Part shown: one piece after another, positions 29,138 through 45,449 of the stretch
How positions within the stretch are numbered: the stretch's first letter is position 1
How the letters are laid out: each line of letters begins with the position of its first letter
Source: an uncultured Clostridia bacterium
Lineage (GTDB): Bacteria; Bacillota; Clostridia; Lachnospirales; Lachnospiraceae
NCBI GenBank assembly: GCA_946626755.1
Contig: CAMOUW010000002.1
Coordinates: forward strand, 3,617-67,616
DNA: 64,000 nt
Reading direction: 5' to 3'
Translations under genes and position numbers: made by a program
The notes under the pieces: generated by a model
Seen by the model: only the letters and a program-made list of their open reading frames with translations
Database searches by the model: none
What the model was told of the DNA's origin: nothing

Positions 29138-29174
29138 GCGGTTATCTGTTCAGATATGACAGATGACCGCTTTT
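29138..29174 (+). terminator. Rho-independent terminator
   Basis: gcggttatctgt...acagatgaccgc followed by tttt. Confidence 0.65.
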
Positions 29175-29210
29175 GCAATATATGTATTTAAAACAAACGG
29201 AGGAAAAGCC

Positions 29211-29726
29211 ATGGAGGATGCTTACGTAACACTGGCGAGGGAGTCTCTCACCTCATATATTAAAACAGGAAGGAAGACAGGCGTGCCGGATGGTCTGCCT
29301 GCTGAAATGCTTGACAGGCGGGCAGGGGTATTTGTTTCTTTGCATAAGGACGGCGCCCTCAGAGGATGTATAGGAACGATCGCGCCGGTACAGGCTTCCA
29401 TAGCAGAAGAGATCATAGAGAATGCTATCAGCGCTTCCACGAGAGATCCAAGATTTCCCGAGGTAAGAGAAGATGAGATCGATGATCTGGAAATAAGCGT
29501 TGATGTCCTTGGTCCGATGGAAAAGATAAAGGATGAGGCGGAGCTGGATGTGAAACGATACGGGGTTGTGGTCACAAAGGGCTGGCAGAGAGGACTTCTG
29601 CTCCCGAATCTTGAGGGGGTGGACACGGTGCAGTATCAGGTGTCCATAGCAAAGCAAAAAGCAGGGATAGATCCGGCAGATAAAGATGTTGAGCTTCAGA
29701 GGTTTGAGGTTGTACGTCATTTTTGA
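29211..29726 (+). CDS. AMMECR1-domain protein (AmmeMemoRadiSam system protein A)
   Basis: AMMECR1 signature [18 protein letters not shown], plus DPRFPEV and [19 protein letters not shown] at 29211 has an RBS. Confidence 0.88.
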
Positions 29727-29959
29727 TCTGTTATACTGGTAATAACATGTTTGGAAGGCATATATAAAAGATGTTGCGATCTTCGATGCAGAGATGGACT
29801 CAAAATGCAAGAAAATTGTGTGTATTTAACAGAGTTGCAGCCTTTGATGCCGGGATGGATAACTTATTGAGTTTAGTTATGACAAAACCTGCTTTTTGCA
29901 AATTATGAAAAAACACAAGACAATGACAGATGATATATAACTAAAAGGTGAGCATATCT

Positions 29960-30892
29960 ATGAGCAAATGCGATGTATGTTTCAGAAATTGTGATATCCC
30001 CGAAGGAGGTACAGGGTGGTGCCATGCAAGGGGAAACAGGTACGGAGGGATCGTGCCGGTAAATTACGGTATCGTCACCGGGCTTGCCCTTGATCCCATA
30101 GAGAAGAAACCGCTGAACCGGTTTTACCCCGGAAGCAAAATACTGTCTGTAGGCAGCTTCGGGTGCAATCTTAACTGCCCTTTCTGCCAGAATTATGAGA
30201 TAGCAAGGGCTTTTTCAAGTGGAGAGGATTCTGAAGGCTGTAAAGATCGCGGGAAAGCTGCGGGCTTCAAAAACGATCCGGAAATATTATACAGAGATGA
30301 TGACGGTCTGCACCGGTTGAATACAAGATCTGTATCACCTGAAGAACTTGCGGGGATGGCGCTGGAACTAAAAGACAGGGGGAATATCGGTGTTGCATAC
30401 ACCTATAATGAACCGCTGGTGGGTTATGAATACCTGATTGATTGCGCCGGGCTTGTGAGAAAAAACGGTATGAAAAACGTCCTTGTATCTAACGGTTGTG
30501 TGAGTCGTGATGTGGCAGAAAAAGTCATAGGAGCGGTAGATGCAGCAAATATCGACCTGAAGTGCTTTACTGAAAAAGGATACGCCAACCTGCTTGGAGG
30601 GGATATCACATTTACAAAAAACTTTATAGAATCGGCTGCAGGGCGCATTCATCTGGAGATAACGACTCTTATCGTGCCCGGGTTAAACGACAGTGAGGAG
30701 GAGATCAGGCGGGAAGCAGAATGGATAGCCGGATTGAAGGGCGGTGAGGGTGTAAATGTGCCGCTGCATTTAAGCCGTTTCTTCCCCCGGCATAAAATGG
30801 CGGACGCTGAAGCGACGGATGTGGGGATGGTATACCGCTTTGCGGAGATCGCAAGAGAGTATCTTAAATTTGTGTATACAGGGAATTGCTAA
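29960..30892 (+). CDS. AmmeMemoRadiSam system radical SAM enzyme
   Basis: N-terminal Cys cluster (CDVCFRNC...WCHAR), radical SAM motif CNLNCPFCQN and family C-terminus LSRFFPRHKM...YTGNC. Confidence 0.88.
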   Translation: MSKCDVCFRNCDIPEGGTGWCHARGNRYGGIVPVNYGIVTGLALDPIEKKPLNRFYPGSKILSVGSFGCNLNCPFCQNYEIARAFSSGEDSEGCKDRGKAAGFKNDPEILYRDDDGLHRLNTRSVSPEELAGMALELKDRGNIGVAYTYNEPLVGYEYLIDCAGLVRKNGMKNVLVSNGCVSRDVAEKVIGAVDAANIDLKCFTEKGYANLLGGDITFTKNFIESAAGRIHLEITTLIVPGLNDSEEEIRREAEWIAGLKGGEGVNVPLHLSRFFPRHKMADAEATDVGMVYRFAEIAREYLKFVYTGNC

Positions 30893-30945: not shown

Positions 30946-31846
30946 TTACTTCTTCAACATTTTTACCGTAAACAAAACTGCCACCACAGCCGCCGCGGCT
31001 TCAGCCACCGGAAGGGCTATCCATATCAAAACTTCCGCATCCGGCAGACGGCTGAATAGGAAAGCGAGAGGAAGGGGTATTATAAGCAGCCGCAACAGAG
31101 ACACTACAAGTGAAGGAATTCCCCGGTTCAGAGCCTGAAATACTCCCTGGAGAGCCATATTTACACCCACACACAAAAATCCGATGGCTGCGATACGCAT
31201 GGCTCTTATACAAAGAAGGGCAGAGTGATCCGACACACCGAACATGGAAGTCAGTTGTGGCGCAAATACCTCAAATGCAAATGTACCTGCGCACATTACA
31301 ATGCAGCAAAACAAAACGCCCTAACGAGAGCCTGCAAGAACCCTGTCCTTTTTTCCTGCGCCGTAGTTATAAGCAACGACCGGAGAGATGACATCCCTGA
31401 GTCCGAAAAGAGCATACAGTAAGAATTGTTGCATCTTGAAAAACACTCCGTAGGCAGTAACGGCAGCCACTGATACAGAGCCGAAAATGAGATTCAGACC
31501 GTAGGACATGACCGATAGCAGCCCCTGCATGAGGATGGCCGGTCCCGCGATCTTAAATATCCCTCTTATTATTTCGCCATCCGGCTTAATGTATCCTATT
31601 CCTTTGGGGTATTTCATTATTTTTATGAAAATGCAATGCCGCCGCAACTATCATGGACACGATCTGTCCGATGACCGTAGCTATGGCTGCACCCCTTATG
31701 CCAAGCGCCGGGAATCCCAAAAGGCCGAATATCATAATGGGATCAAGGACAAGGTTGGTGAGGGCGCCGCATATCTGGGCTATGGTGGAGTATATGGTCT
31801 TTCCCGTTGCCTGCAACAGTTTTTCATATAATCTGAAACCTCGCAT
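30946..31846 (-). pseudogene. MATE efflux transporter pseudogene (N-terminal about 130 codons missing, one frameshift and one stop)
   Basis: Three consecutive minus-strand ORF pieces (31846-31586, 31647-31321, 31314-30946) together read as TM5-TM12 of a MATE protein. Confidence 0.8.
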
Positions 31847-32029
31847 GAAAATCGTTTTTTTACGCTGATCTTAAGACTTTTTTATGATTTTTACATATAT
31901 CCGGATTTGTTTTAATAAGAAAATAAGAACATATCAACTATAAATGAAAACACATCCTGACATACCGGTTGAACAGGAAATGTGTTTTACCAGGATAGAG
32001 TAAAGTCGGATGAAACAGAGTAAAAAGCA

Positions 32030-32186: not shown

Positions 32187-33215
32187 TTATCTGTAAAGCT
32201 TCCGGTAATACGCAGGATTAAATCCTGTGTGTTTTCTGAAAAATTCCGTAAAACTGCCGGGTTTTTTAAAGCCGGTGCGGTCTGCGATCTCTTTTATCGT
32301 AAGGTCGGTGGAAATTAGGAATAAACGGGACTTTTCTATAAGAATACTGTTTCTGTATTCAGAAACAGTACATCCCGTCACCTGTTTAAATGTGTATTTC
32401 AGCTTTGCAGGACTCATGCATGCTGTTCTTGCCAGAGCTTCCAAACTGTCTCTTTTTTCGGGAGCATCGCTTAAAAGCCGGGTAAGTTCTGAGATTTTTA
32501 CAATATCCTCACTGCTTACGCTGCTGCCGGGACCGTGGTCTGCAACAGGCCTGCCATCAACGGGCACGACGCCGGTTTCAAGATCTGCGGCTTTCCGCAT
32601 AAGTACAGAGAGGATTTCGTGAAGCTTACTTTCATAAAACAACACAGATTCGCTGCCTATATGCCTTGTCTTATTTAAATGTATCTGTCCGGCTATGATT
32701 GTTATTTCCGGTAAGGAGCCGAAATCGGACACCTTTGACAAGGCGTCGTAGGAAGACTTTATATCCAGTTGAAAAACTTCTTTTACATATCGTATGTATT
32801 TATCGGGATCGATCATAATTACAAATCCTTCAAATGCTTTTCCTGAAGACAGATTAAAAAGCCTTTCTTCAGGGAATCCGCTTATGTATCTTATTGTCCC
32901 CTGATGCAGCACGTGCCCTCTTTCATCTACAGCATTTACCTGAGAGAAACATGTAATGAAATGAAGCCCGGTATTCATGTAAAGATTTATGTTATTTTCC
33001 GGTTTTGTTTCAAAGCAGAAAAAAGCAGCAATGGTTCCCAAAGTGTAAATAAGGCATTTGCCAGCACTATTGTCACTTCCCGGAGTATAAAGATGCAGAT
33101 TGTTGTATGAGACGAAAGTCTTTTCTTTTTGCAGATCAAATGTGTCTGTTATTTTTTTTATTATTTCTTCAAGATTCTTTTTCATGGTTTTCCTGTACAT
33201 TTTTCTTGTATTCAT
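32187..33215 (-). CDS. AraC-family transcriptional regulator (divergent from the pilus operon)
   Basis: C-terminal AraC HTH (LEALARTACMSPAKLKYTFKQVTGCTVSEYRNSILIEKSRLFL...IKEIADRTGFKKPGSFTEFFRKHTGFNP). Confidence 0.85.
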   Translation of the reverse strand: MNTRKMYRKTMKKNLEEIIKKITDTFDLQKEKTFVSYNNLHLYTPGSDNSAGKCLIYTLGTIAAFFCFETKPENNINLYMNTGLHFITCFSQVNAVDERGHVLHQGTIRYISGFPEERLFNLSSGKAFEGFVIMIDPDKYIRYVKEVFQLDIKSSYDALSKVSDFGSLPEITIIAGQIHLNKTRHIGSESVLFYESKLHEILSVLMRKAADLETGVVPVDGRPVADHGPGSSVSSEDIVKISELTRLLSDAPEKRDSLEALARTACMSPAKLKYTFKQVTGCTVSEYRNSILIEKSRLFLISTDLTIKEIADRTGFKKPGSFTEFFRKHTGFNPAYYRKLYR

Positions 33216-33288
33216 GCAACCTTTTTAATTAATACCGCTTTCGGATAATATCCTTCCTCTAACGGCTAAAATAACAGTAAATGTGTTG

Positions 33289-33342
33289 CATTAGCCGCTG
33301 CCAACTGATATACGTATATCCATGAGTTATCCTATGCTAACT
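33289..33342. promoter_or_regulatory. Two copies of the AGTTAG-N6-CTAACT dyad in the AraC/pilus intergenic region
   Basis: cattagccgctgccaact (33289-33306) and agttatcctatgctaact (33325-33342). Confidence 0.55.
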
Positions 33343-33423
33343 ACAAAGGTAATCATATCAGAATAATTTGCGGTTGTGAAGTTTAAATTTAAAAAGGAAA
33401 CGAGGAGGCTATGAAAAGAGAGG

Positions 33424-35259
33424 ATGATGAAAAAGAAAAAGATAGCATGGAAGCGGTTCAGGGCAGGGAAGGTGTCCGCGCTTCTTCTGGCAACGGCTGT
33501 TGCTGCGGCGCCTGTAACGGGACTTGCGGCTGTAACGGCTGAAAATGTGCTTGCAGTGACAGGTTCTGAGATCGCAGAGGACGGTACATATTCTTCTGCA
33601 GTGACTGTCAGCAAGTATAAAAATGGCAAGCTGGATAAGACTTACCGGGGTACGGTTTATGTTTCCGTTGCTGACGGGAAGATTTCAAATATCAACGTCT
33701 ATGCTTCGGATAAGCAGGACAGATTTGATGAGCTTTTAAGAGGTGTGCGGTCAAGCTATATAGGACAGCCTGCTACATTGAGCGGTATAGAGGCGGCTGT
33801 AGATACTGTTTCCTCCGCTACGGCGAAGGGAAGTGCTAACACTTATTCCGAAAAATATTATGTATCAAATCTTACGGATGCGATCGAAAACGCCATAAAA
33901 GGTGCACCGGCGGCAACAACGCCGGACACAACAGGAGCAGATATCCCTGATGGTGTTTACACCGGAAGGGCAGATATGGGTAGCAATGATCATTACATTA
34001 CCCTTAATGTGACTGTTTCAAACGGGAAGATCACGGATATCGCAGTAAATGATGCCGACGGAAATTGGGATAATCTTCTGTCCCAGGTAAAGTCTTCCTA
34101 TATAGGCACAAATGCTGAGGCTGCCAATGTGGATGCGGTGACTTCGGCTACAACACAAGGGTACAGGGAAGCAATTGCCCGGGCGATAAAAAATGCCCTT
34201 GCGGGAAATCCTAATACCGGTGGCACAGGTGATGATCCGGGAGGAAACACAGGAAATTCGGGAGAAAACAGCAGTGGTACCGGGAACAGCTCGGCCGGTG
34301 ACGGATACAGCATAGTCAAAAAAATTAAAAAAGCTGCAAAAGGCGTTACGACACCTGATGCTGTGTTTACATTTACCATGACACCAAAGGACGGAGCGCC
34401 GCAGATAAGCAGTAAGACTATCAGTATAAACGAAGACAGTGACCTGTCGTCTCTTAAAGCCGGTATCGGGCTGACGTCCGAAGATCTCTCAAAGTTTACC
34501 GAAGCCGGGATTTATGAATATATCCTGACTGAGGAAACCGGCAGGCTATCTCCGACGGCAAAAGGAGACATGTCCTACAACACCGGCAACAATTCCTATC
34601 TTGTGCGTTATAAGATCTGGTACAACAACGGTGTGCTTGAACCGGCGGCGGTCACTGTTCATGAGATCAAAAACGGAACGGTATCTGACGAAAAAACGGA
34701 GATTCCTGAGTTCGAAAACTGCTACACGGTATCTTCGCAGCTTACAGTAAGTAAGTCTGTAAAAGGCGAACATGCTGATAAAAACAAAAAGTTTGAGTAC
34801 AGCGTCACATTTACAGAGGATGAGGCAAATGCGGGGTTAAATCTTACTTCAACGGCGGTGCTTAAGAAAAACGGAACCGAAGTGGCGGCAGGCACACAGC
34901 TTGATTACGGCACACAGTACACATTCAGCCTGAGTGACGGGGAGACCGTGCTTTTCACGGTACCGGCGGGGACGGATTATGAACTCATGGAGGCTGCTTC
35001 GGAAAGCTACACCCCTTCTGCAAATGTAGTGACCGATGGAAAGGCTGAAACGAAGTCGGCAGGAACAGGTGCGGCACTTACGGTACAGTCTTACATAGGT
35101 GAAAACGAGAATAAGGCCGAGTTTACCAATACCTATGAGGACAATCCTCTGACGGGGCTGGCAGGCGGTGGAGGACCTTTGTTCATACTGCTGCCTGTCG
35201 GTGCCGGAGCGATAGTACTGCTGGCTTTAGACAGGAAGAGAAGGGCAGCAAAAAAATGA
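33424..35259 (+). CDS. Sortase-anchored pilin-type protein carrying two N-terminal FMN-binding (FMN_bind, ApbE-substrate) domains
   Basis: Signal peptide, then two FMN_bind-like domains with motifs VDTVSSAT (33802-33822) and VDAVTSAT (34132-34152). A G/N/S linker follows, then Spy0128/SpaA-like isopeptide pilin domains (AVFTFTMTPKDGAP, AGIYEYILTEETG, LTVSKSVKG, FTNTY). The sorting signal is NPLTG, a TM helix and DRKRRAAKK. Confidence 0.85.
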   Translation: MMKKKKIAWKRFRAGKVSALLLATAVAAAPVTGLAAVTAENVLAVTGSEIAEDGTYSSAVTVSKYKNGKLDKTYRGTVYVSVADGKISNINVYASDKQDRFDELLRGVRSSYIGQPATLSGIEAAVDTVSSATAKGSANTYSEKYYVSNLTDAIENAIKGAPAATTPDTTGADIPDGVYTGRADMGSNDHYITLNVTVSNGKITDIAVNDADGNWDNLLSQVKSSYIGTNAEAANVDAVTSATTQGYREAIARAIKNALAGNPNTGGTGDDPGGNTGNSGENSSGTGNSSAGDGYSIVKKIKKAAKGVTTPDAVFTFTMTPKDGAPQISSKTISINEDSDLSSLKAGIGLTSEDLSKFTEAGIYEYILTEETGRLSPTAKGDMSYNTGNNSYLVRYKIWYNNGVLEPAAVTVHEIKNGTVSDEKTEIPEFENCYTVSSQLTVSKSVKGEHADKNKKFEYSVTFTEDEANAGLNLTSTAVLKKNGTEVAAGTQLDYGTQYTFSLSDGETVLFTVPAGTDYELMEAASESYTPSANVVTDGKAETKSAGTGAALTVQSYIGENENKAEFTNTYEDNPLTGLAGGGGPLFILLPVGAGAIVLLALDRKRRAAKK

Positions 35260-35291
35260 TGGATATTATAAAATAAAAGGAGATTTATTTG

Positions 35292-37457
35292 ATGAAGAAT
35301 ATATTTACTAAAGGCTTTGCGGCTGCTGTAGGTGTGATGACGGCGGCTGCGTCGGTATTTGGAATGGGTACAGCAAGCACATATGCTGCTGAAAATATAG
35401 CACATACAAAAAGTATAGAAGGAAGCGGTGATGATTATACACTTAAGCTTACCGTAACAGGTAAGGATAAGAAGGATGAAAGTACGATAACGACTACTAC
35501 AAACGGACATGCAGATATTTTGCTGGTACTGGACAGGACCGGATCCATGAGTTCATCCCTTGGAGACGGAACAAGACTGCAGGCTTTGCAGACAGCGGCT
35601 AAAAGCTTTGTATCCGGACTTAAGGATGATGAAGCTTCAAATATATCTGTTGTTACATTCGGAATGACGGACAATGAAGGCAAAACCCCTGTGGATGTGG
35701 CGCAGGGCTGGACTACCGTATCATCCGTAAGCAAGGCAAATATAAACAATATAATTAACGGAATGACGCTGCATAATCCGAACAATGCCTACAATACGAC
35801 ATATTATCCGGGTCTTTCCAAGGCAGATGAACAGCTGACACAGGTCAGCAACACCGGAAACAACAAATATGTAATATTCTTTTCCGACGGCGAGAATTCA
35901 GATTCTTCTTATGGATATAACTTAAGCGGTATGGCAACTACGGTTAAGAGCAAAGCTACCGTATTTACACTGGGCATCCCTGTGGCAGATCCCTGGGGCG
36001 GTATGTTCGGAGGTTCGGCCAGTACTGATCCTGCTGATCTGAAAAACATGGCTTCCTCTGCTGATAAGTATTATTCCATCAACGATGCAAACGCAATGAG
36101 CAACGCATTTACACAGGCACTTCAGGTGATCAAGGAAGAGACGACCATTACAAGCACTCCCATGACAAATGTGACCATAACGGATGTGTTAAGTGATTAT
36201 GTGGAACAGAACGGGGATATAACCGTTTCAGGCAACAGCGGAAAGGTTACTGCACAGTCTGTAAACGGCAAAAATATAAGTGTGACTCTTGATACGATCC
36301 CTGATGGTGAGACGGTGACGGTGTCCATACCCGTTAAGCCTTCACAGGCTGCAAAAGATGCGGCTGATGCTGCGGGTAATACGGACAGTACGTTTAAAAC
36401 CAATAAGGGTGCGACACTTAAGTTTTTCTATAAAGCACAGGAGCAGAATCTGGATTATGCCGAAGAACCGCAGATAACCCTTACCGGTACACAGCACAAC
36501 GATCCCGCAACGAAGCCTTCCGATATCAGCTTTAAGCTTTCCAAGGTTTTAGAGGTTAAGGCGGGTGATAAAACAGTACCGGATGCCACGTTTAAATTTA
36601 CGGCAGTAAGTAATGATGCAGATGCACCCGCAATAACCATAGACGATGTCACATTTACATCAGCGGATACTCTTAATTCGGAAAATAAGGTTAGTAAGGA
36701 AATAAGTTTTGCGCTTCCTGAGGCAGCTGCATTTACAAAGGCAGGTACTTATACCTATACGATCACAGAAACAGCCGATACATATACCGGGGACGGTTTC
36801 ATGACTTATGACGATGCAAGCTATACACTTACGGTGAAGGTTTGCGAAACTGCGCAGGGAATGACCTATGACGACGGTAACGGGACCCATATCGTGCTTG
36901 CAAATGCCGATGGTGACAAGGTCAGCGGACTTGAGTTTAACAATGAGTATGACAAGGATGTAGAAGAGACTACACTGGTTGTAAGTAAGACGGTTGAGGG
37001 GGATCATGCAAATAAGAATCAGGAGTTTGAGTATACGATTTCCTTTACGGATCCCGGGAATGCCAAGGATGTAAAGCCGGCAAGGGGTACGGAGAGTATA
37101 GAGTTTGGCACGGATTATACATTTAAGCTGAAGGACGGGGAGACGGCAGAGTTTTCCCTTCCCGTAGGAACAAAGTATACTATTGTGGAGACAGGTGCGG
37201 ACAGTTATGAAGCAAAAGCAGTGATCACCTGCGGTGACACACAGGATACCAAAAGCGCAGGCGTAGGAGCAGATCTGACTGTAAGTGATGTGACCGCCGT
37301 AAACGGTGTGAACAAGGCGGACTTTACCAATACTTATGTGGATAACCCATTGACAGGACTTGCTAACGGAAAAGGACCTTTGTTTATAATAATTCCCATC
37401 GCAGCAGGAGCAGTGGTTCTGCTTGCGGTAGCCAATAAGAGAAGAGCAAGAAGATAA
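35292..37457 (+). CDS. Pilus tip adhesin candidate: VWA domain followed by isopeptide pilin domains and NPLTG sorting signal
   Basis: Signal peptide, VWA/MIDAS-like ILLVLDRTGSMSS, pilin-domain motifs (ATFKFTAVSNDADAP, AGTYTYTITETAD, VVSKTVEGDHANKN, FTNTY), then NPLTG, a TM helix and KRRARR. Confidence 0.85.
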   Translation: MKNIFTKGFAAAVGVMTAAASVFGMGTASTYAAENIAHTKSIEGSGDDYTLKLTVTGKDKKDESTITTTTNGHADILLVLDRTGSMSSSLGDGTRLQALQTAAKSFVSGLKDDEASNISVVTFGMTDNEGKTPVDVAQGWTTVSSVSKANINNIINGMTLHNPNNAYNTTYYPGLSKADEQLTQVSNTGNNKYVIFFSDGENSDSSYGYNLSGMATTVKSKATVFTLGIPVADPWGGMFGGSASTDPADLKNMASSADKYYSINDANAMSNAFTQALQVIKEETTITSTPMTNVTITDVLSDYVEQNGDITVSGNSGKVTAQSVNGKNISVTLDTIPDGETVTVSIPVKPSQAAKDAADAAGNTDSTFKTNKGATLKFFYKAQEQNLDYAEEPQITLTGTQHNDPATKPSDISFKLSKVLEVKAGDKTVPDATFKFTAVSNDADAPAITIDDVTFTSADTLNSENKVSKEISFALPEAAAFTKAGTYTYTITETADTYTGDGFMTYDDASYTLTVKVCETAQGMTYDDGNGTHIVLANADGDKVSGLEFNNEYDKDVEETTLVVSKTVEGDHANKNQEFEYTISFTDPGNAKDVKPARGTESIEFGTDYTFKLKDGETAEFSLPVGTKYTIVETGADSYEAKAVITCGDTQDTKSAGVGADLTVSDVTAVNGVNKADFTNTYVDNPLTGLANGKGPLFIIIPIAAGAVVLLAVANKRRARR

Positions 37458-37478
37458 AGACACTCTTCGGAGATTGAT

Positions 37479-38351
37479 ATGATATGCAGGATATATAAAA
37501 AACAAATATATATTAAATTCTTATATGCTTTTGTTATCGGATTATTTATCATAATGTTTAATGCAACTATGACCATGGCGTCACAGGTAAAAATTCCAGT
37601 ACGGGTAAATGTGCCTGAATTCGCAACAGAAGGGGCAGTACAGCTGGTGCTTATACCAAAGAGTGAGGACTGCCCCTTGCCGTCAGGTAGTAAAGGGGGT
37701 GAGTGCAGAGTTGTGGCAGATGGTACATTTACAGGGTTTGAAATGGAGTTTTACGGTGCCGGTGATTACAGGTATGAGCTGGTTGCTGAGGCAGTTGAAG
37801 GGTTTGAGTGTCCGGTGTCACAGTATGATCTTCTTGTGCGTGTGAGGCCGGACGATACCTTTCAGGTGGCGGTCTATAACAGATCAGGTGAGAAGTGTGA
37901 GGCAGAATATACATTTACCGGTTCGCAAACAAATGTTAAGGATTTTACGGATGTTGAACCTGAGACCGGGGAAGAGAAGAAGACGGCAGATGATGTGAGA
38001 GAAAATGTTAAGAGTGATGTAACGATTGAAAAAGGTGCACAAGAAGAAAGTCCGGCAGAACAAACAATAACAGGGGACGAAACGGAACCTGCGAAACTGA
38101 AACAGACAGAAGGACAGGCAAATGTGCCGGAAATGAAAATGACAGCGGCGTCATCAGGAACGGCAGAGGGCGTTAAAGCAAAAACGGTCTCAATGGTCGC
38201 ATCGAATACCGTAAATATGCAAAAAACAGGCAGCCGTACATCCCCCGACACAGGTGATAAGGCGGATATTTACCTTCTGCAGATCGCTGCCGTATCTGCC
38301 GGAGTCCTGGTCTTTGCAGTGATGATGTATCTCAGAGGCAAAAAGGAATGA
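37479..38351 (+). CDS. Small pilin-like sortase substrate (base/minor pilin candidate) with SPDTG sorting signal
   Basis: Signal peptide and a single pilin-like Ig domain (GAGDYRYELVAEAVEG...YDLLVRV). An acidic linker is followed by SPDTG, a TM helix and RGKKE. Confidence 0.7.
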   Translation: MICRIYKKQIYIKFLYAFVIGLFIIMFNATMTMASQVKIPVRVNVPEFATEGAVQLVLIPKSEDCPLPSGSKGGECRVVADGTFTGFEMEFYGAGDYRYELVAEAVEGFECPVSQYDLLVRVRPDDTFQVAVYNRSGEKCEAEYTFTGSQTNVKDFTDVEPETGEEKKTADDVRENVKSDVTIEKGAQEESPAEQTITGDETEPAKLKQTEGQANVPEMKMTAASSGTAEGVKAKTVSMVASNTVNMQKTGSRTSPDTGDKADIYLLQIAAVSAGVLVFAVMMYLRGKKE

Positions 38352-38354
38352 TTT

Positions 38355-39212
38355 ATGAACAAAGCGGCACGAAGGATTCTTTACATTTTTGACGAAGTTA
38401 TAAATTTTATAGTTCTTGCTATCTTTGTAGTGCTTACTTTATTTTGCATTTACATTTACACAGACAGCGGGCGGCTGGAAGCGGAAGCGGACACTGCCCG
38501 CTTTGTCCAGTTTAAGCCGGTGGAAAAGGAGCATCTGACATTTACACAGTTATGTGAGAGGAATCCGGATGTGTTCGGCTGGATAAGCATAGATGATACG
38601 GGGGTGGACTATCCGCTGGTTCAGGGCAGGAATAATTCGGAATATGTAAATATGACGCCGGAGCGGACATTTTCCCTGACCGGCAGTATCTTTCTTGATT
38701 ATCGTAATAACAGGAGTCTGACGGATAAGGTATCCGTAATATACGGGCATCATATGGAAAAGGACAGGCTGTTCGGAGGCTTCGATAAGTTTGAGGATAA
38801 GACTTACTTTGTGGAGCATGAAACAGGCAGCATTGTTTTTGATGATATGATTTACGGTATCAGGATTTTTGCGTTCCTTAAGGCGGACGGTTATGATACA
38901 AGCGTATATAATCCCAGGGTTACTGAGGCAGAGTTTCCGGCGTGGAAGGAACATATCATGAGTCTTGCGCTGCAAAAGGGCGAGGTGCCGGGTGACGGTG
39001 CAAGAGTGCTTTTACTTAGTACCTGCGCAAGCATGGATACTAATCAGAGGCTGATACTTGCTGCGGAGCTTGGGGAAGGGGTACCGCTTCCGGATGAAGT
39101 ACCGGAAGGAGTTGCGATCACATGGGCGTGGCCGGTGGCGGTTGCTGTGGCAGCAGGGTGTGCTGTTGTCCTTTTGGTGATTACTATACGTAAAAAACAT
39201 AAGAGAAGATAA
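38355..39212 (+). CDS. srtB: Class B sortase (pilus-associated) with extra C-terminal TM anchor
   Basis: N-terminal TM helix, NPDVFGWISIDDTGVDYPLVQG, GSIFLDYRNN, VIYGHHM and active-site LLLSTC. C-terminal hydrophobic helix followed by RKKHKRR. Confidence 0.85.
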   Translation: MNKAARRILYIFDEVINFIVLAIFVVLTLFCIYIYTDSGRLEAEADTARFVQFKPVEKEHLTFTQLCERNPDVFGWISIDDTGVDYPLVQGRNNSEYVNMTPERTFSLTGSIFLDYRNNRSLTDKVSVIYGHHMEKDRLFGGFDKFEDKTYFVEHETGSIVFDDMIYGIRIFAFLKADGYDTSVYNPRVTEAEFPAWKEHIMSLALQKGEVPGDGARVLLLSTCASMDTNQRLILAAELGEGVPLPDEVPEGVAITWAWPVAVAVAAGCAVVLLVITIRKKHKRR

Positions 39213-39234
39213 AGAATTTACGAACAGGAGTAAT

Positions 39235-39792
39235 ATGAATATCAGAGAGTCATACAGTGCAGATATGATTGAAGAAAAAGAAAATGAGAAAAAAAAGGCC
39301 GCCACATTTACAGGTTCTCTTATCTCATTATTGGTGAAGATTGGGATAATAACCGGTGTTGTAGTTTTTATAGCTTTTTTTGTGTTGAATCTTCACACGG
39401 CTTCGGGTTTAGCCATGAGCCCGTCTGTTAAAGACAGGGATCTGGTCATCACATATCGTTTTGATAAAGATTATGCGGCAAGGGATGTAATCGTACTTGA
39501 TGTTATGGGGGAAAGGCAGGTTCGAAGAGTGGTGGCGGTAAGCGGCGATACGGTGGACGTTACATCTGAGGGTCTGCGTGTAAACGGATACCTGCAGCAG
39601 GAGCAGTATGCGCAGGGGGAGACTCTTGCTTTTGAAAGTGATGTGGAGTATCCGGTTACTTTACAGCCCGGAGAGATTTTTGTACTTGGAGACAACAGGG
39701 AAAAATCCACGGACAGCCGGGTATACGGCCCGGTGAAGGCAAGAGACACGGTAGGGAGTGTAATTGCCGTATTCAGATACCGTGATTTTTGA
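39235..39792 (+). CDS. Signal peptidase I homologue lacking the Ser/Lys catalytic dyad (SipA/LepA-like pilus assembly factor candidate)
   Basis: S26 fold motifs are retained (GDNREKSTDSRVYGPV). The SM-x-PT box reads GLAMSPSV (Ser to Ala). The KR-x-x-G-x-PGD box reads VRRVVAVSGDTV (Lys to Arg). Confidence 0.8.
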   Translation: MNIRESYSADMIEEKENEKKKAATFTGSLISLLVKIGIITGVVVFIAFFVLNLHTASGLAMSPSVKDRDLVITYRFDKDYAARDVIVLDVMGERQVRRVVAVSGDTVDVTSEGLRVNGYLQQEQYAQGETLAFESDVEYPVTLQPGEIFVLGDNREKSTDSRVYGPVKARDTVGSVIAVFRYRDF

Positions 39793-39821
39793 CTGCACGA
39801 TGAAAAAAGCTAAACGACAGC

Positions 39822-40922
39822 TTATTTTCTTACCACAGTTGTGCTGAAAGTGTCTGATGTGAAACTTTCACTGATCCCTTCCGTAACATACAGCATATCT
39901 GTATCATCCATAAGAATGGTCTCAAAATCGTTGCTATGGGATTTCCAGAAATCCAGTGCCTTGTCTCTTCCCATGACGTAAAGAGCAGTGGAGAGGGCAT
40001 CTGCCATTATCGCATCCTTACTGATCACGGTGACGGAGATAAGCCCCTTGTCAGCAGGATATCCGGTGGCAGGATCCATGATGTGATGATAGTACCTGCC
40101 GTCCTGTTTAAAGTTACGTTCATAGCCGCCGGAGGTGATCACGGCTACATCTGATGCGGTAAGTATGCCGATAAAATCCGTATTCTCATAAGGGCTGCTT
40201 ATCCCCACACGCCAGAGACTGCCGTCCGGTTTTGTGCCTAAAAGTTGTACGTTTCCGCCCAGATTTACCATACCGCTTGCAATGCCTTTATCCTTGAAAA
40301 GCTTTATAAGGGCATCTGAAGTATAGCCCTTTGCTATTCCGCCCAGATCTATTTCCATAGCTTTATTTTCAAATTCTATTTCATTCGTTTTTTTGTCAAA
40401 ACTTATTTCTGACAGATCGGTATTTTCCAAAATGTCATTTATTGTATCGGCAGAGGGGACTTTATAATTCTGAGAAATAAAGCCCCACTCTTTAAGAAGG
40501 GGATAAAGGCTTATATTAAAAGCTCCGTCGGTAAGCTGCCATGCTTCCATAGCTTGTTCCAAAAGGTGTGCGGTATCATCGTCAAGAACGGCGGTCTTCT
40601 CTTTGTTTAACTTTGATACAGCGCTGGTTTCTATTTCGGTGGACAGTCTGTTTTCTATGTCATTTACAAGAGATTCGCCTTCCTGTACGACAGCAGCCGC
40701 ATTCTCACCGTATGCAGTAAGAGTCATAAAGGTATCCATGGCAAAAAAAGCTGCCTCTGCAGGTATGGCGGAGACAGTGTTTTTTTCGTTAAGTACTGCA
40801 GTGCTTCCGGCTGCGACAGTTTCCGGAACATCCGGATTATTCTTGGCCGTACAGCCTGTGATGATCATACAACCTGTAAAAACAGGCAATGTAAATGTAA
40901 TAAAAAATCGTTTTGTATTCAT
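39822..40922 (-). CDS. apbE: FAD:protein FMN transferase (ApbE family) lipoprotein
   Basis: Lipobox (VFTGC/ITGC) followed by the ApbE motifs AMDTFMTLTAYG, IDLGGIAKGY, VNLGGNVQLLG, WRVGISSP, AVITSGGYERNF, HHIMDPATGYPA and ADALSTALYVMG. Confidence 0.9.
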   Translation of the reverse strand: MNTKRFFITFTLPVFTGCMIITGCTAKNNPDVPETVAAGSTAVLNEKNTVSAIPAEAAFFAMDTFMTLTAYGENAAAVVQEGESLVNDIENRLSTEIETSAVSKLNKEKTAVLDDDTAHLLEQAMEAWQLTDGAFNISLYPLLKEWGFISQNYKVPSADTINDILENTDLSEISFDKKTNEIEFENKAMEIDLGGIAKGYTSDALIKLFKDKGIASGMVNLGGNVQLLGTKPDGSLWRVGISSPYENTDFIGILTASDVAVITSGGYERNFKQDGRYYHHIMDPATGYPADKGLISVTVISKDAIMADALSTALYVMGRDKALDFWKSHSNDFETILMDDTDMLYVTEGISESFTSDTFSTTVVRK

Positions 40923-41092
40923 ATCTGTTCCGTTTTCCGTTTCTTTATTGTTTTCTGTAAGTATTTTAAATTAATCAAATCAATGTGTATCTTCAATGGT
41001 CTTATGTTAAGACATTTCAAAGCACCCTTCGACCACTCTTCAAGGTAGAGCTTATTAAGGGGATCTACATTGTAACTTTAATAATCTGTCTT

Positions 41093-41617
41093 TTACTGCC
41101 GGCGTTTTTTGGCGGTCGTTATCAAGAATGCATCTGACGGCAAATGCTGCATTACCGAATGTGATATAAGTCCGTTTACAAATCCGCAGACCAGACCTGA
41201 AAAGATAAGCAGCGGAAAATATCCGAAAACATTCAGATTCGACACTACAAAAGATGCAGTTATTACCTGGGCAAGATTGTGTGTTATACCCCCTGCAACG
41301 GAAACACCGATAACAGAAAACAATCCGGTTTTTTTAAGCAATGACATTACGCTCAGGCTTAAAAGGGCGCCTGTCATTGCATACATACATCCAAACATAC
41401 CGCTGAAAAGAAGACCACTGAGTAAAACACGCATAACATTTACGGCAAAGGAATATTTGGTACCTATGCAGTAGAGAGTCATGATGATAACGATATTTGC
41501 AAGTCCGAGCTTTATTCCGGGAATGCCCAGATTAAAGGGAATCAGAAATTCTATATATGAAAATATCATGGCAAGGGACGTAAGTAGTGTTGCCATAGTA
41601 AGACTCTTTGTGTTCAT
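41093..41617 (-). CDS. Gx transporter family protein (Hpre_diP_synt_I-type membrane protein)
   Basis: About 175 aa with 5 TM helices and GIPGIKLGLANIVII, typical of the family found beside ApbE and NusG-II genes. The ATG at 41617 avoids overlap with the upstream gene. Confidence 0.7.
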   Translation of the reverse strand: MNTKSLTMATLLTSLAMIFSYIEFLIPFNLGIPGIKLGLANIVIIMTLYCIGTKYSFAVNVMRVLLSGLLFSGMFGCMYAMTGALLSLSVMSLLKKTGLFSVIGVSVAGGITHNLAQVITASFVVSNLNVFGYFPLLIFSGLVCGFVNGLISHSVMQHLPSDAFLITTAKKRRQ

Positions 41618-41621
41618 TTTT

Positions 41622-41999
41622 TTAACGCGCCACTGCGTCGACCTCCTTCTCATTACCGGTTATCTCAAGCACGACTTTATGGGGCAGGCATACAATGGTC
41701 TCACCATGCTTACCTATGCTGTGTTCATGCACACAGTCAAAGCCGGGACAGTTTGCATTTACCATATCGACCCTTCCGTTCTTTATTTCAAAAGTGTTTA
41801 GATCTTCACCGTTGCTTACGGTCACAGTGGAATCAATGGATGTGTTGTAGGTTCCGTAAAGTTTTCCGTCCACCGTCACTCTGAGAGTCTGTCCTTCAGA
41901 CTTACCCAAAATAAGAACTGCCGACAACCAGATTCCTGCGACCACTATAGCCGCTATAAGTATGATATCTGCCCTTTTTATTATTTTAAACCCACTCAT
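41622..41999 (-). CDS. NusG domain II-containing membrane-anchored protein
   Basis: N-terminal TM helix, then TVDGKLYGTY...NGRVDMVNANCPGFDCVHEHSIGKHGETIVCLPHKVVLEI, which fits the NusG_II/DUF1312 pattern with its Cys pair. Confidence 0.7.
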   Translation of the reverse strand: MSGFKIIKRADIILIAAIVVAGIWLSAVLILGKSEGQTLRVTVDGKLYGTYNTSIDSTVTVSNGEDLNTFEIKNGRVDMVNANCPGFDCVHEHSIGKHGETIVCLPHKVVLEITGNEKEVDAVAR

Positions 42000-42078
42000 A
42001 TCTCTTATGTAAATACGCCGTGTGGCAAAACTGAATTCTGAATTTTATATCAAACAGATTACAGGAATGATCCGCAAT

Positions 42079-42120
42079 TGTTAGAGCGTGCTAACTTGAT
42101 ATAGTTTACCAATGCTAACT
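42079..42120. promoter_or_regulatory. Two copies of the AGTTAG-N6-CTAACT dyad upstream of the NusG-II/Gx/ApbE operon
   Basis: tgttagagcgtgctaact (42079-42096) and agtttaccaatgctaact (42103-42120). Confidence 0.55.
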
Positions 42121-42516
42121 GAAGGTGTCAAGGTGTAAACATGAGGAAAAGTCAACAAAAAAATTGACAATTGCAGATATGAGTTCTGTTTATTATGAAT
42201 GCAAAGAAACCTAAGAAGCAAATAATGTAAAAAGCATTGCTTTGCTTGTTGGTGAGTCATTTAATATACCTGTTCCGTCTTACGAAAGAGTAGAGAATAT
42301 ACTGGATTTTATTATTTGTATGCAGATATTTACACGTAAACCGCAAATTTTATATTTGTCATGGATGAATACACATATCTGCGTAAAACAGCTGAGGGAC
42401 TGGATAACATTTATTATGATGACCATTTACTTTGATTACGGAATCTGCAGGGGGTGTTAAATGTTTGCCTGAAAATACGGTTTCATTTTAAGAATCAGAT
42501 ACTGATAAAGTACATA

Positions 42517-43857
42517 TCAGTATCTGTATTTTTTACGGAATATAATAAGACAAATGATACTGAGTACAAGGGCGGCTGCCTCCGCCACTATCACCGATCC
42601 CCAGATACCGTTCACGCCTAAAAAGCCGGGAAGGATAAGGATGCTTAGCACTTCAAAAACAAGAGTCCTAGCAAATGAGATAAGAGCGGATACGGGACCG
42701 TTGTTTAAGGCGGTAAAAAATGAGGAGGCAAACATATTAAAGCCCATGAAAAGAAAGGCTACGGAGTATATCCTGAAGGCGTTGACCGTTAAGTTCATAA
42801 GCTCCGCGTCATATCCCACAAATATAGAAGATATAAAACCTGAGCCCAGCTCGGAGGCTATCGTGACGATCACGGAAAAAATGCCTGTGAGTATGAGGCT
42901 CTTTTTAAACAGACCTTTAAGCTCGGCAGTATTTTCGGAGCCGTAATTATAAGAAATGACAGGAGCCGCCCCCAGAGAATAGCCCATAAAAAGACCGGCT
43001 GCAACGGTGAAATAATACATGATGACGCCGTATGCCGCAACTCCGGGCTCGCCTATGTATTTTAACAGCTGCATATTGTAGAGCATATCCACAACTGATG
43101 CAGCAATATATGTCATCAGCTCAGAGGAGCCGTTCAGACAGGATCTGAGGATAGCCTTCCCGTTAAACCGGGTCTTTCCGATACGAAGGAGGCTCTTGTT
43201 CTTAGTAATAAAGTAAATAAGTGGTAAAACACCACCCAGAAACTCACTTATGACCGTGGCGGTAGCTGCTCCGCTTACCCCAAAGGAAAGCTGTCCCACC
43301 AGAAGCCAGTCCAGGAAAATATTGGCAACGCCGGAAAAGACTGTTATCACAAGACCCAGATGAGGTTTTTCCGCAGTGACCAGAAAACTCTGGAAAACAT
43401 TCTGGAGCATAAAGGGGATAAGTGAGATAAGGCTTATGCGGGCATATTGTACGCATATGGGCAGCATATCTGGAGTTGCCCCCAGAGCAGATGCGATATC
43501 CGCGATAAAGATGTACCCTACGATATCCAGGACCGCCCCGCAGGCTATGACAAAATATATGAGCAGAGAAAAGATCTCATTTGCCTTTTTACTCTTGCCC
43601 TGTCCCAGAGTCATGGATACCAGGGCGCTGCCGCCGGTGCCTATCATAAAGCCCATGGACGAAAGGATCATAAGGACCGGCATGATGAGATTGACTGCTG
43701 CAAATGCAGTGGCGCCTACATAGTTGGACACGAAAAAACCGTCTATGATGATGTAAATAGATGAAAAGATCATCATAGCTATGGAAGGAAGTGTAAAGCG
43801 CAGCAGGCGCCGGAATGTAAAATGATCGGAAAGCTGTATCTTCATAAAAAACCTCAA
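42517..43857 (-). CDS. MATE family efflux transporter (intact)
   Basis: 446 aa with 12 TM helices and MATE N-terminal motifs. Its 3' part is the source or paralogue of the fragment at 32030-32169. Confidence 0.88.
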   Translation of the reverse strand: MRFFMKIQLSDHFTFRRLLRFTLPSIAMMIFSSIYIIIDGFFVSNYVGATAFAAVNLIMPVLMILSSMGFMIGTGGSALVSMTLGQGKSKKANEIFSLLIYFVIACGAVLDIVGYIFIADIASALGATPDMLPICVQYARISLISLIPFMLQNVFQSFLVTAEKPHLGLVITVFSGVANIFLDWLLVGQLSFGVSGAATATVISEFLGGVLPLIYFITKNKSLLRIGKTRFNGKAILRSCLNGSSELMTYIAASVVDMLYNMQLLKYIGEPGVAAYGVIMYYFTVAAGLFMGYSLGAAPVISYNYGSENTAELKGLFKKSLILTGIFSVIVTIASELGSGFISSIFVGYDAELMNLTVNAFRIYSVAFLFMGFNMFASSFFTALNNGPVSALISFARTLVFEVLSILILPGFLGVNGIWGSVIVAEAAALVLSIICLIIFRKKYRY

Positions 43858-44040
43858 AGATAATGCAAAACGTGTTATATAGAAGATTATAAGAGGTTAT
43901 AAGAATTTTTTCAAATGTGCGGGGTGCAGTTAAAAACTCCATCGATGCCGATGAACTTTTTACTTAAATCGGGTAAAAACTATTGAACAATGAAGCTTTT
44001 ATGCTTTAATCAAATAAAAACAGTGTAGAGGAAAGTTGTT

Positions 44041-44551
44041 TTGATAAAAAGACCATTATATACAGAGCTGTTGAAAAAATATAGAGACCATTTATAATTA
44101 TATAACCTGGCTGGAGCAGGCATTTATCATATACAGATGTAAAAGGTATGACATTCAAGGTAAAGAAGTGCTTAAAACCCAGGAAAAATATTACATTGCC
44201 GACCCTTCATTAAAATATTCGAGACTCGGTTTTGATCCGAAAGGAATATCTGCTATCTTAGAGAATTTAGTATATTTTGAGCTAAGAAGAAGAGGTTTTG
44301 ATGTTTACATAGGCAAATTCAAAGATATGGAGATCGATTTTGTTGGTATCAATAAAGACGAAAGGATTTATATTCAGGTATGCAGAAATATTCCTGAAGA
44401 TTCAAATCGCGAAACAGATAATCTTCTTAAGATAAACGATCAGTTTCCGAAGTATGTTGTTACTCTGGATGAATACGTCAAAGGGATTTATGAGGGGATA
44501 AGAATCGTTCATCTTGCGGATTTTTTGAGTGGTAAATACCGGGGTGAATGA
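44041..44551 (+). pseudogene. AAA-ATPase/DUF4143-family gene with large internal deletion
   Basis: 44041-44097 encodes the family N-terminus LIKRPLYTELLKKYRDHL followed by a stop. 44168-44551 encodes only the DUF4143 C-terminal part. The P-loop region is absent. Confidence 0.65.
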
Positions 44552-44677
44552 TTCCGGAAATCTTATTCGTCAAATAAACTGAAACGAGTGGGTTCCGTGG
44601 AAGAGCTTATGAAAATGTTTCAGGAATTATTGATCATAAAGTTTTTTTAATAGTTTTATAAAAAAGGAAGGTTCAAT

Positions 44678-45400
44678 ATGGAAGCACGTTTAAAACAGAA
44701 GCTCCTGCCGGTCATAATAATGCTGATCGCCGCTATATCTGCAGCATTTACCGTTGCGGCATGCCAGCCGGCAGCAAAAGATCAAAAGATTGCAGATGTC
44801 AAGGCTGATTACGTCATCACAAAGGTAAAGGGAGATATAAACTGGGAGGACATCCCTGCATTTGATATAGATCAGGTTTTATGGACAGATGATTACGGCA
44901 TAAGAGCAAAGGGACAGCTTTGTTATGACAAGGATAATCTTTATGTACACCTGTCAGCAAAGGAAAAGGATATCCGCGCTGAAAATACGGAGCCTCTTAC
45001 ACCGGTATATGAAGACAGTTGTCTTGAATTTTTCTTCATGCTGGAGGGTGAGGAGAAATACTTCAATTTTGAGACAAATCCAAACGGAGTTTTAAATAAA
45101 CAGGTGGGTATCACAAAAACCGACCGCATTTCGCTTGTGAGAGAGGATGACAAAGAATATTTTGACATCAGGACAGATAGAACTTCAGAAGGTTGGGAAG
45201 TGTATTACAAGATTCCCCTTGAGTTCATGAAGGTGTTCTACCCGGATTATGAGTATAGTGGGGTTTTACTTGCAAATGCGTACAAATGCGGCAACAAGAC
45301 GGTAAATAAGCACTACCTTTCATGGAAGCCTGTGAACAGTGAAAAGCCGAACTTTCATGTCACATCAAGTTTTGGAAGGATGAGTTTTGAGGATCAGTAA
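44678..45400 (+). CDS. Lipoprotein with carbohydrate-binding family 9-like (DOMON-like) domain
   Basis: Lipobox VAACQ, then DNLYVHLSAKE...EDSCLEFFF...YFNFETNPNG...YKCGN, resembling CBM9-like proteins. Confidence 0.55.
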   Translation: MEARLKQKLLPVIIMLIAAISAAFTVAACQPAAKDQKIADVKADYVITKVKGDINWEDIPAFDIDQVLWTDDYGIRAKGQLCYDKDNLYVHLSAKEKDIRAENTEPLTPVYEDSCLEFFFMLEGEEKYFNFETNPNGVLNKQVGITKTDRISLVREDDKEYFDIRTDRTSEGWEVYYKIPLEFMKVFYPDYEYSGVLLANAYKCGNKTVNKHYLSWKPVNSEKPNFHVTSSFGRMSFEDQ

Positions 45401-45449
45401 ATGATCATGCTGTATGACAGCAAAAAATAGATTAAAAAAGGAGACGTAC

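Follow-up and report, generated by a model that had tools for sequence, protein, structure and literature searches.

A candidate flavinylated sortase pilin: an FCT/PI-2-type pilus locus converging with an ApbE/EetB-family operon

The 64,000-nt stretch of DNA analysed here (the window) comes from an uncultured Clostridia bacterium and carries, at positions 32187-41999, a compact block of nine genes in which a sortase-pilus gene cluster meets an operon of flavin-related genes. An earlier sequence-only reading had described the block as a pilus locus beside an ApbE flavin transferase operon, and had raised the possibility of a pilin bearing covalent flavin mononucleotide (FMN). All nine open reading frames (ORFs) claimed in that reading are present at the coordinates it gave, and Pfam and NCBIfam profile scans of the nine proteins agree with its families for eight of them, the small pilin having no family match. 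The nine genes are:

32187..33215, minus strand: AraC-family regulator, 342 amino acids (aa) (HTH_18, 8.2e-21; HTH_AraC, 1.3e-12)
33424..35259, plus strand: FMN-head pilin, 611 aa (FctA and DUF7601 pilin domains)
35289..37457, plus strand: VWA-head pilin, 722 aa (VWA_2, 5.4e-9; FctA, 2.1e-12; DUF7601, 1.1e-15)
37479..38351, plus strand: small pilin, 290 aa (no Pfam or NCBIfam family match)
38355..39212, plus strand: pilus-type class B sortase, 285 aa (TIGR03064, 2e-42)
39235..39792, plus strand: inactive SipA/LepA-like signal-peptidase homologue, 185 aa (Peptidase_S26, 4.8e-24)
39822..40922, minus strand: lipoprotein ApbE-family flavin adenine dinucleotide (FAD):protein FMN transferase, 366 aa (ApbE, 5.5e-85, 285 bits)
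41093..41653, minus strand: EetB-family membrane protein (PF07456, 1.2e-35)
41622..41999, minus strand: NusG_II-domain membrane protein (NusG_II, 1.1e-25)

The five plus-strand genes are separated by 3-29 nt, and the three minus-strand genes of the flavin operon converge on them, with the NusG_II gene overlapping the start of eetB by 32 nt. A divergent AraC regulator had been described, and both the HTH_18 match and the position of this gene, which is kept in loci L001-L004 and L007, bear this out. We consider the pilus genes very probably to be an FCT/PI-2-type sortase pilus cluster. Our favoured reading, to which we give a rough probability of 0.6, is that 32187-42144 forms one functional unit, consisting of a pilus with modular heads that depends on the class B sortase and the SipA homologue, and a flavin module that matures the FMN head.

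The reading centres on the 611-aa pilin, in which a signal peptide is followed by two FMN_bind-type domains, a Gly/Asn/Ser-rich linker, an FctA domain, a DUF7601 domain and the sorting motif DNPLTG. The N-terminal signal sequence and the sorting signal were read by eye, and the protein contains a single cysteine and no CxxCH haem motif. Its parts are:

33562..33918, plus strand: FMN_bind-like domain 1, residues 47-165, a paralogue of domain 2 with two insertions
33802..33822, plus strand: candidate flavinylation motif 1, D127-T-V-S-S-A-T133, from a motif scan
33937..34209, plus strand: FMN_bind domain 2, residues 172-262, matched by Pfam FMN_bind when scanned alone
34132..34152, plus strand: candidate flavinylation motif 2, D237-A-V-T-S-A-T243, from a motif scan
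34210..34305, plus strand: low-complexity Gly/Asn/Ser/Thr/Asp linker from the FMN module to the pilin module (predicted local distance difference test (pLDDT) <50 at residues 265-316)
34306..35139, plus strand: shaft-type two-domain pilin module (FctA and DUF7601), from Foldseek and profile comparison with the Protein Data Bank (PDB)
35140..35256, plus strand: sorting signal, consisting of DNPLTG, a hydrophobic segment and an RKRRAAKK tail, read from the sequence

Residues ~168-275, which span domain 2, matched FMN_bind when scanned alone (23.9 bits, cut-off 22, E 6.8e-5). A profile of domain 2 compared with the PDB found the FMN-binding domains 8p2b (1.8e-7) and 8p2a (3.6e-7), both crystallised from multi-flavinylated proteins, and in these alignments VDAVTsAT lies against DVHSGAT and DAVSGAT. 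Domain 1 aligns with domain 2 by hhalign (98.8%, E 4.5e-17), and it is solely because of this homology that it is assigned to the FMN_bind type. When the N-terminal 220 residues were modelled separately (pLDDT 75), both halves showed the order beta-beta-beta-alpha-loop-alpha, and a single-sequence PDB search with the N-terminal 228 aa returned no match. The sequence-only reading had placed two FMN-binding domains on a backbone-type pilin; this stands for domain 2, through the Pfam scan of the domain alone and through 8p2a/8p2b, and for domain 1 through hhalign only, and was not borne out by the Pfam scan of the full-length protein. We hold with good confidence that the N-terminal domains are FMN_bind homologues.

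The published flavinylation motif is D-x-x-[S/T]-G-A-[S/T] (PMC12052999). Among the ORFs of at least 100 aa in the window, D..[ST][GS]A[ST] occurs in one only, the FMN pilin, and it occurs there twice, in the expected loop of each domain. Across the five orthologues, D127, S130, S131 and T133 of motif 1 are invariant, as are D237, T240, A242 and T243 of motif 2, where the Gly position is occupied by Ser, Thr or Gly (SAT, TAT, GAT) and the canonical DAVTGAT is seen in one orthologue. In both motifs, neither the Asp nor the acceptor Thr varies among orthologues of 58-100% identity or among more distant carriers of the module. For another test protein, changing the Gly to Ala cut flavinylation by half (PMC12052999). 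It is fairly probable that at least one of the two domains is flavinylated by the adjacent ApbE.

The remainder of the FMN pilin resembles the shaft pilins of known pili. Its C-terminal 320 residues match PitB shaft pilins in sequence searches, and its AlphaFold model (mean pLDDT 61, C-terminal domain ~90) retrieves PitB (9e-16), the major pilin Spy0128 (1e-12) and the tip pilin Cpa (3e-8) in Foldseek, the pilin module dominating these matches of the full-length model. We built a pilin profile from the FMN-pilin module, the VWA-pilin module and 18 plain ~350-aa relatives; compared with the PDB, it matches T-antigens, PitB and Spy0128 over their full length (6e-76 to 5.5e-36), and Cpa and the VWA tip pilin PitA over one domain only (~1e-15). 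The NPLTG of the FMN pilin is invariant in its orthologues, and so are two candidate isopeptide triads (K299/E365-E370/N432 and K444/E520-E523/N569) in all five. The candidate acceptor lysine K424 (nt 34693-34695) is likewise invariant and lies eight residues before the first isopeptide Asn, and a lysine at this position is common to most of the plain ~350-aa pilins. For comparison, the acceptor K161 of Spy0128 lies seven residues before N168 (PMC7900414).

The C-terminal 330 aa of the VWA pilin are 39% identical to the FMN pilin, down to the signal DNPLTGLA.G.GPLFI. Its equivalent lysine, K544, and N552 are invariant, K544 being present in six homologues, and the residues of the metal ion-dependent adhesion site (MIDAS) are present in its head (D82, T84, which is Thr or Ser among homologues, S86, T170 and D200). 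A module with two CnaB-type domains, isopeptide triads, an omega-loop lysine and an LPXTG-like signal is therefore found, at the level of both sequence and fold, in two proteins of the block, and because both qualify, neither large pilin can be named the major pilin. The label of backbone-type pilin in the earlier reading thus fits the FMN pilin and fails as a distinction, since the VWA pilin has an equal module and signal. The acceptor lysine was also considered as a discriminator between shaft and tip subunits and failed, being kept in both pilin families. The PI-2 tip pilin PitA of S. oralis is a VWA protein as well (7vcr, 7w6b), and the VWA-head pilin is likely a tip adhesin. Both shaft-type pilins of the locus bear a head, and a plain shaft pilin is missing; the same holds for every orthologous locus and for the related locus L008. 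FctA-type pilins evidently accept exchangeable functional heads.

The small pilin, as seen in an alignment of five orthologues, has a signal peptide, a beta-rich domain of ~115 aa with an invariant K139, an acidic, low-complexity tail of very variable length, and the sorting signal SPDTGD, the motif being [S/T/A]P[D/S]TG among orthologues. This protein has no match to a Pfam or NCBIfam model or to a structure. FctB base pilins follow a pattern of an Ig-like domain, an extended tail and a sorting motif handled by another sortase (PMC7900414), and from its sequence the small pilin is likely a candidate FctB-like wall-anchoring base pilin.

The sortase matches TIGR03064 with 145.2 bits (2e-42), just under the cut-off of 153.75, and its catalytic residues can be recognised as His in IYGHH, Cys in LLSTC and Arg in NQRLI. 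Among solved structures, it is closest to the SrtB-family 4y4q (1.9e-42) and to Spy0129 (3psq), the class B pilus sortase of S. pyogenes (1.5e-35), with the GHH, STC and Arg positions aligned in both; NPQTN-specific sortases match at ~1e-19 only. The class B assignment proposed from sequence is thus upheld by TIGR03064 and by these aligned residues. The best PDB matches of the signal-peptidase homologue are S. pyogenes SipA (4n31, 9.6e-14) and LepA (4k8w). In the alignment with 4nv4, an active signal peptidase, Ala (GLAMSPS) takes the place of the nucleophile Ser and Arg (VRRVVAV) that of the general-base Lys, and because both residues of the dyad are replaced, we class the protein as an inactive SipA type; the earlier prediction of a catalytically dead homologue agrees with these replacements. 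SipA is required for assembly of FCT-2/3/4 pili (PMC7900414). As a side observation, two pilus loci without an FMN pilin place the sortase and SipA-like genes in close contact: in L010 (13126-14562, plus strand) one 478-aa gene call comprises both the class B sortase and the SipA-like protein, and in L011 (1989-3420, plus strand) the two genes are adjacent and overlapping.

The converging operon encodes an ApbE whose N-terminus contains lipobox-like FTGC and ITGC, read by eye; together with the ApbE family match, this N-terminus is consistent with the extracytoplasmic lipoprotein ApbE proposed in the earlier reading. That reading had also named NusG-II and "Gx" membrane proteins beside ApbE, of which NusG_II is retained and "Gx" is corrected to PF07456, the EetB family. 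Its Listeria member, EetB, is an FAD-binding subunit resembling the S component of energy-coupling factor (ECF) transporters; it is required for the export of the FAD that the ApbE homologue FmnB uses in extracytosolic flavinylation (PMC9973259). Among 4,214 genomes with eetB, eetA was colocalised in 3,328 and apbE in 2,169, while in Clostridia eetB most often accompanies Rnf (PMC9973259). The NusG_II protein is probably the EetA partner, as judged from gene order, this family identity not being confirmed in the literature. Because PF07456 is the EetB family and lies beside ApbE, the operon can be described as a flavin export and attachment module. One further feature lies 5′ of it:

42103..42131, minus strand: promoter-like site TTGACA-17-TAAACT with TG, 5′ of NusG_II-eetB-apbE, a consensus match only

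Promoter and terminator scans of the region gave counts not above those of shuffled sequence.

Comparison with orthologous loci shows how these genes travel together. The informative contexts are four, namely the window, L004, L002 and L001, with L003, L007 and L009 too short to inform. The window and L004 (pilin 87% identical) share nucleotide homology over 32193-42144, at 85-92% identity outside two short gaps, and the apbE of L004 occupies the same position as that of the window. The left flank of L004 is unrelated to the window, and the sequence on its right corresponds to DNA found 12 kb farther along in the window, so that the nine genes behave as one unit in two contexts. In L002 (70%), the NusG_II gene and eetB (72% nucleotide identity) lie on the other side of the cassette, next to the AraC gene, and no apbE was found within the 17.7 kb examined. 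In L001 (58%), 0.9 kb past the gene for the SipA homologue, lies one encoding a DUF4405 protein (35.9 bits, cut-off 26.7), a haem-b cytochrome family whose genes are found together with apbE and the flavin exporter in Firmicutes (PMC11334425). Genes for flavin trafficking or associated with flavinylation are thus found beside the cassette in 4/4 informative contexts, and the linkage belongs to this pilin family, not to the N-terminal module in general. Related loci that lack the FMN head (L010 and L011) are on contigs too short to be of much use as negative controls for the ApbE linkage.

Several details of these loci were noted along the way. In L002, the place that apbE occupies in the window, right behind the SipA-like gene, is taken by a 169-aa ORF without a Pfam match (12022-12531, plus strand). 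The DUF4405/cytochrome-b561-like membrane protein of L001 (16975-17634, plus strand) comes after a short LuxS-family ORF, and the sequence ends ~240 bp further on. The ~12 kb of the window at 42145-54516 are absent from L004, where the block abuts the ABC-transporter pair found at window 54517-57418. This segment encodes MatE, a CBM9 lipoprotein, Flavin_Reduct, a WYL/WCX regulator, a HipA_C kinase, a metallophosphoesterase and DNA_alkylation, and looks like a variable region.

Beyond these loci, FMN heads on sortase substrates are recurrent but rare, and are often paired with a VWA adhesin. A word-indexed search of 5.8 billion proteins found the full-length architecture of the FMN pilin in five proteins (P0001-P0005), and an exhaustive hidden Markov model (HMM) search of 1.84 billion (1.84e9) representatives found two 50%-identity clusters with it (P0001 and P0010). 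The other HMM matches fall into two groups, one with the pilin module only, mostly plain ~350-aa pilins, and one of carriers of FMN-type domains. The word-indexed homologue search with the N-terminal module gave one protein, at a contig end. A genome scan gave one locus, a distant module carrier in 'Clostridiales bacterium UBA7011' (L005), and a metagenome scan gave three further distant loci with the module only. The FMN-head pilin is known from metagenomes only, and its host is Clostridia-like.

Several carriers of FMN domains are proteins of 1000-1800 aa in which an FMN-like module is followed by VWA, then CnaB/SpaA, and finally a terminal sorting signal (LPSTG in P0026, PPLTG in P0118, IVDTG in P0014, VVNTG in P0015 and QPQTG in P0016/L005). 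On sequence grounds, these large carriers may be regarded as flavin-module-capped adhesins, a type not described in the literature consulted. The unusual double FMN-like module of the FMN pilin recurs in L005 (3819-7646, plus strand), L013, L014, P0013-P0016, P0026 and P0118, where it starts with AV(T/S)G.(E/Q).A.DG.Y immediately behind the signal peptide and forms the head of such large proteins with VWA and CnaB/SpaA domains, most of them with a terminal sorting signal. P0044 (L008 3269-4849, plus strand) is an independent fusion of one canonical FMN_bind (DAVSGAT), Flg_new, an FctA-type pilin module and the signal NALTG. Its gene is the last in a tandem array encoding three head-bearing pilins, with those for a small pilin and a class B sortase coming next, and the paralogues of P0044 (P0061, P0103, P0116 and P0134) bear other heads.

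Our literature searches, with subscription-only papers outside their scope, found no description of a flavinylated sortase pilin, in line with the sequence-only reading, whose author was likewise unaware of a flavinylated pilus. Two genomic surveys of flavinylation do not contain sortase, LPXTG or pilin in their main text, "FMN-binding domain" together with "LPXTG" led only to an unrelated genome report, and ApbE has zero occurrences in the top-ranked literature on pilins and sortases. What is new is the combination of two known systems, the FCT/PI-2 pilus and ApbE flavinylation, and this combination is real and unusual.

The gene content, domain homologies, motifs, genetic linkage and lost catalytic residues of the SipA homologue suggest how such a unit could work. 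The large subunits would be shaft-type FctA/PitB modules with exchangeable N-terminal heads, one a MIDAS VWA domain and the other a double FMN_bind-type module. The FMN pilin would be secreted by Sec and kept in the membrane by its sorting signal, while the EetB-family subunit and its NusG_II partner would export FAD, from which the lipoprotein ApbE, on the outside of the membrane, would transfer FMN to the Thr that ends D-x-x-[S/T]-S-A-T (T133 and T243). The class B sortase, aided by the inactive SipA homologue, would then cleave after the Thr of NPLTG and join it either to the following subunit, through a lysine that may be K424 or K544, or to the base pilin, perhaps through K139, and a housekeeping sortase would fix the base pilin to peptidoglycan. 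The product would be a covalent fibre or short stalk that shows covalent flavins beyond the wall, beside a metal-dependent adhesin. The repeated association of flavin-type heads with VWA adhesins of the MIDAS type suggests that redox chemistry takes place on a bound surface, and judged from these sequences the most likely use of the structure would be redox chemistry at a bound surface or particle, either reducing Fe(III) or other extracellular acceptors or exchanging with soluble shuttles. In our estimate, the structure has at best an even chance of containing two or more copies of the FMN pilin. That it is polymerised into a covalent shaft with two flavins per subunit, with electrons hopping between tethered heads by bounded diffusion, seems quite unlikely, and electron travel along the fibre is just as doubtful, so that a nanowire reading is speculative.

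A number of observations weigh against the favoured reading, some of them on the side of the flavin and some on the side of the fibre. Concerning the flavin, Pfam FMN_bind at E<=0.01 was not reported on the full-length 611-aa protein, domain 1 has no direct FMN_bind match in Pfam, and a domain-1 profile found only insignificant HPr-like matches in the PDB. Foldseek of the N-terminal model gave no match at E<=1e-3, with IscU at 0.02 (top) and the FMN domain 8p2a at 0.09; IscU as a fold analogue was ruled out, the module having no cysteine ligands. Both motifs have Ser in place of the consensus Gly (DTVSSAT, DAVTSAT), and A132 of motif 1 is Pro (SSPT) in P0003 and P0005; given these departures, the sequences do not appear to support flavinylation of both domains. 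ApbE is adjacent in only two of the four informative contexts, which are close relatives (87% protein identity), the flanks of the distant module carriers L005, L013 and L014 contain no ApbE, EetB or sortase, and other ApbE substrates, such as Rnf, may exist in this genome. These points would suit a reading in which the N-terminal domains are degenerate FMN_bind-fold modules without flavin, serving as structural or binding heads, while NusG_II-eetB-apbE serves other proteins, such as Rnf, and adjoins the pilus genes merely through shared ancestry of a variable region. The weak or absent family scores of the N-terminal domains, the non-consensus Ser in both motifs, the SSPT of domain 1 in two orthologues, the company that eetB mostly keeps with Rnf in Clostridia (PMC9973259), the restriction of ApbE adjacency to the two closest relatives and the distant carriers without a nearby ApbE all favour it. 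We nevertheless think it distinctly unlikely, as the Asp and acceptor Thr have stayed invariant from the orthologues to the distant carriers, eetAB stays by the cassette after rearrangement, a DUF4405 gene lies beside the most divergent orthologue, and no other ORF in the window bears the motif.

Concerning the fibre, no plain shaft pilin accompanies the two large pilins, and the VWA pilin has the same module, signal and lysine as the FMN pilin; because of this sharing, subunit order and copy number are not deducible, and the sequences would not support the FMN pilin as the polymerised shaft over a VWA pilin with an equally complete module. Flavin could thus be displayed without a flavin shaft, either in short heteromers, where one head-bearing pilin is joined once to the base pilin, or with the FMN pilin as an accessory or alternative tip, giving one or few flavin copies per structure and a local surface reductase or shuttle-recycling site rather than a chain. 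Such display agrees with the lack of a plain ~350-aa shaft pilin in the window locus and in any orthologous locus, with both large pilins looking like tip adhesins with functional heads, with the FMN module being the distal N-terminus in the related single large sortase-anchored VWA proteins, and with a linker whose length is not conserved. SipA-type chaperones, however, are known from shaft-polymerising systems (PMC7900414), and both large pilins have a complete major-pilin module and a conserved omega-loop lysine, unneeded in a pure tip subunit, so we regard display alone as rather unlikely. Three points speak against a wire: the block lacks an electron-input gene, the heads would be a two-domain pilin module apart, and the linker is variable. 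Specifically, no quinone-linked or cytochrome electron-input gene is found among the nine block genes, the window outside the block being annotated in part; families of Ndh2 and the demethylmenaquinone pathway are absent from the nine as well, and the annotated neighbours are unrelated. Because the linker ranges from ~10 residues (P0005) to ~65 (P0002) in the orthologue alignment, head-to-head transfer would need collisions of tethered domains or soluble shuttles, and with heads about one pilin length apart, the predicted anatomy would not imply a fixed cofactor chain like that of a multihaem filament. Finally, there might be no pilus at all, the class B sortase anchoring the three sorting-signal proteins singly to peptidoglycan, like Isd-type NPQTN sortases. 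A score just below the TIGR03064 cut-off and an NP.TG signal resembling NPQTN-type class B signals would fit, yet NPQTN sortases are far more distant from this enzyme than are 4y4q (1e-42) and the pilus sortase Spy0129 (1e-35), the locus includes an inactive SipA-like peptidase, its pilin modules share homology with major pilins that polymerise, and its gene set parallels FCT and PI-2 loci, all of which make single anchoring highly improbable.

Two features flank the left edge of the block. Three overlapping ORFs at window 30946-31868 (minus strand) resemble pieces of one MATE-type efflux gene, probably a frameshifted pseudogene; these fragments sit ~0.3 kb left of the block edge, and an intact MatE gene lies to the right of the block at 42517-43857. 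Two adjoining genes at window 29163-30892 (plus strand) appear by eye to encode an AMMECR1-family protein and a radical-SAM enzyme (an AmmeMemoRadiSam-type pair).

The favoured reading, a sortase pilus with a flavin-matured head, touches on the question of how Gram-positive bacteria that lack multihaem cytochromes carry electrons through a thick wall and past it. PplA and other flavinylated lipoproteins work at the surface of the membrane; longer conduits have been proposed in the form of multi-flavinylated proteins, but no principle of their assembly is known. A flavin pilin polymerised by sortase, if real, would supply one, giving a fibre in which everything, the cofactors included, is joined covalently. 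If the shaft and the hopping were both true, a Gram-positive anaerobe would have a haem-free flavin conduit with a VWA adhesin at its end to hold the acceptor. Even mere surface display of flavin would extend the substrates of ApbE to sortase-anchored proteins. The candidate is directly testable because its gene set is defined (sortase, SipA, ApbE and EetB), and exchangeable heads on FctA-type pilins are relevant to engineered redox-active or cofactor-bearing protein fibres.

Among known systems, the pilus genes are most readily compared with PI-2 of S. oralis/pneumoniae (PitA, SipA, PitB, SrtG) and with FCT-2/3/4 of S. pyogenes (Cpa, SipA/LepA, FctA, class B SrtC, FctB). Shared with these are the class B sortase with an inactive signal-peptidase chaperone, the two-domain FctA/PitB module with its isopeptide triads and omega-loop lysine, an adjacent AraC-type regulator, a small candidate base pilin whose sorting motif departs from that of the large ones and, as in S. 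oralis PitA, a VWA pilin as the likely tip. The block differs in having no plain shaft pilin, in the extra head on each large subunit, one of them an FMN_bind-type pair, in its gene order, with sipA last of the pilus genes, and in its Clostridia-like host known from metagenomes. The flavin genes resemble the extracellular electron transfer locus of Listeria monocytogenes (PplA, FmnB/ApbE, EetA/EetB, FmnA, Ndh2, DmkA/B), in which an extracytoplasmic protein likewise has two FMN_bind domains, the ApbE-family transferase is a lipoprotein, and the FAD-export subunit of the EetB family is accompanied by a small partner gene. PplA, however, is a membrane-tethered lipoprotein and no sortase substrate, and the block lacks genes for Ndh2, quinone synthesis and ECF-T (FmnA) and has Ser for Gly in both motifs. 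The likeness to multihaem filaments of the OmcS/OmcZ type is one of concept only, that of an extracellular polymer with redox cofactors; there are no haem motifs here, sortase isopeptide bonds would replace non-covalent stacking, and the cofactors would be on tethered heads about a pilin length apart rather than in a van der Waals stack. The multi-flavinylated proteins of Firmicutes (Meheust 2021; Huang 2024; Tong 2023, 8p2a/8p2b) have tandem extracellular FMN_bind domains arranged like beads on a string, as the FMN pilin does in its head, and a proposed role in longer-range electron transfer. They have been discussed with SLH, Rib, FIVAR or LysM wall-binding partners, whereas in the pilin described here multiplicity would arise by polymerising a two-flavin subunit, not from many domains per chain.

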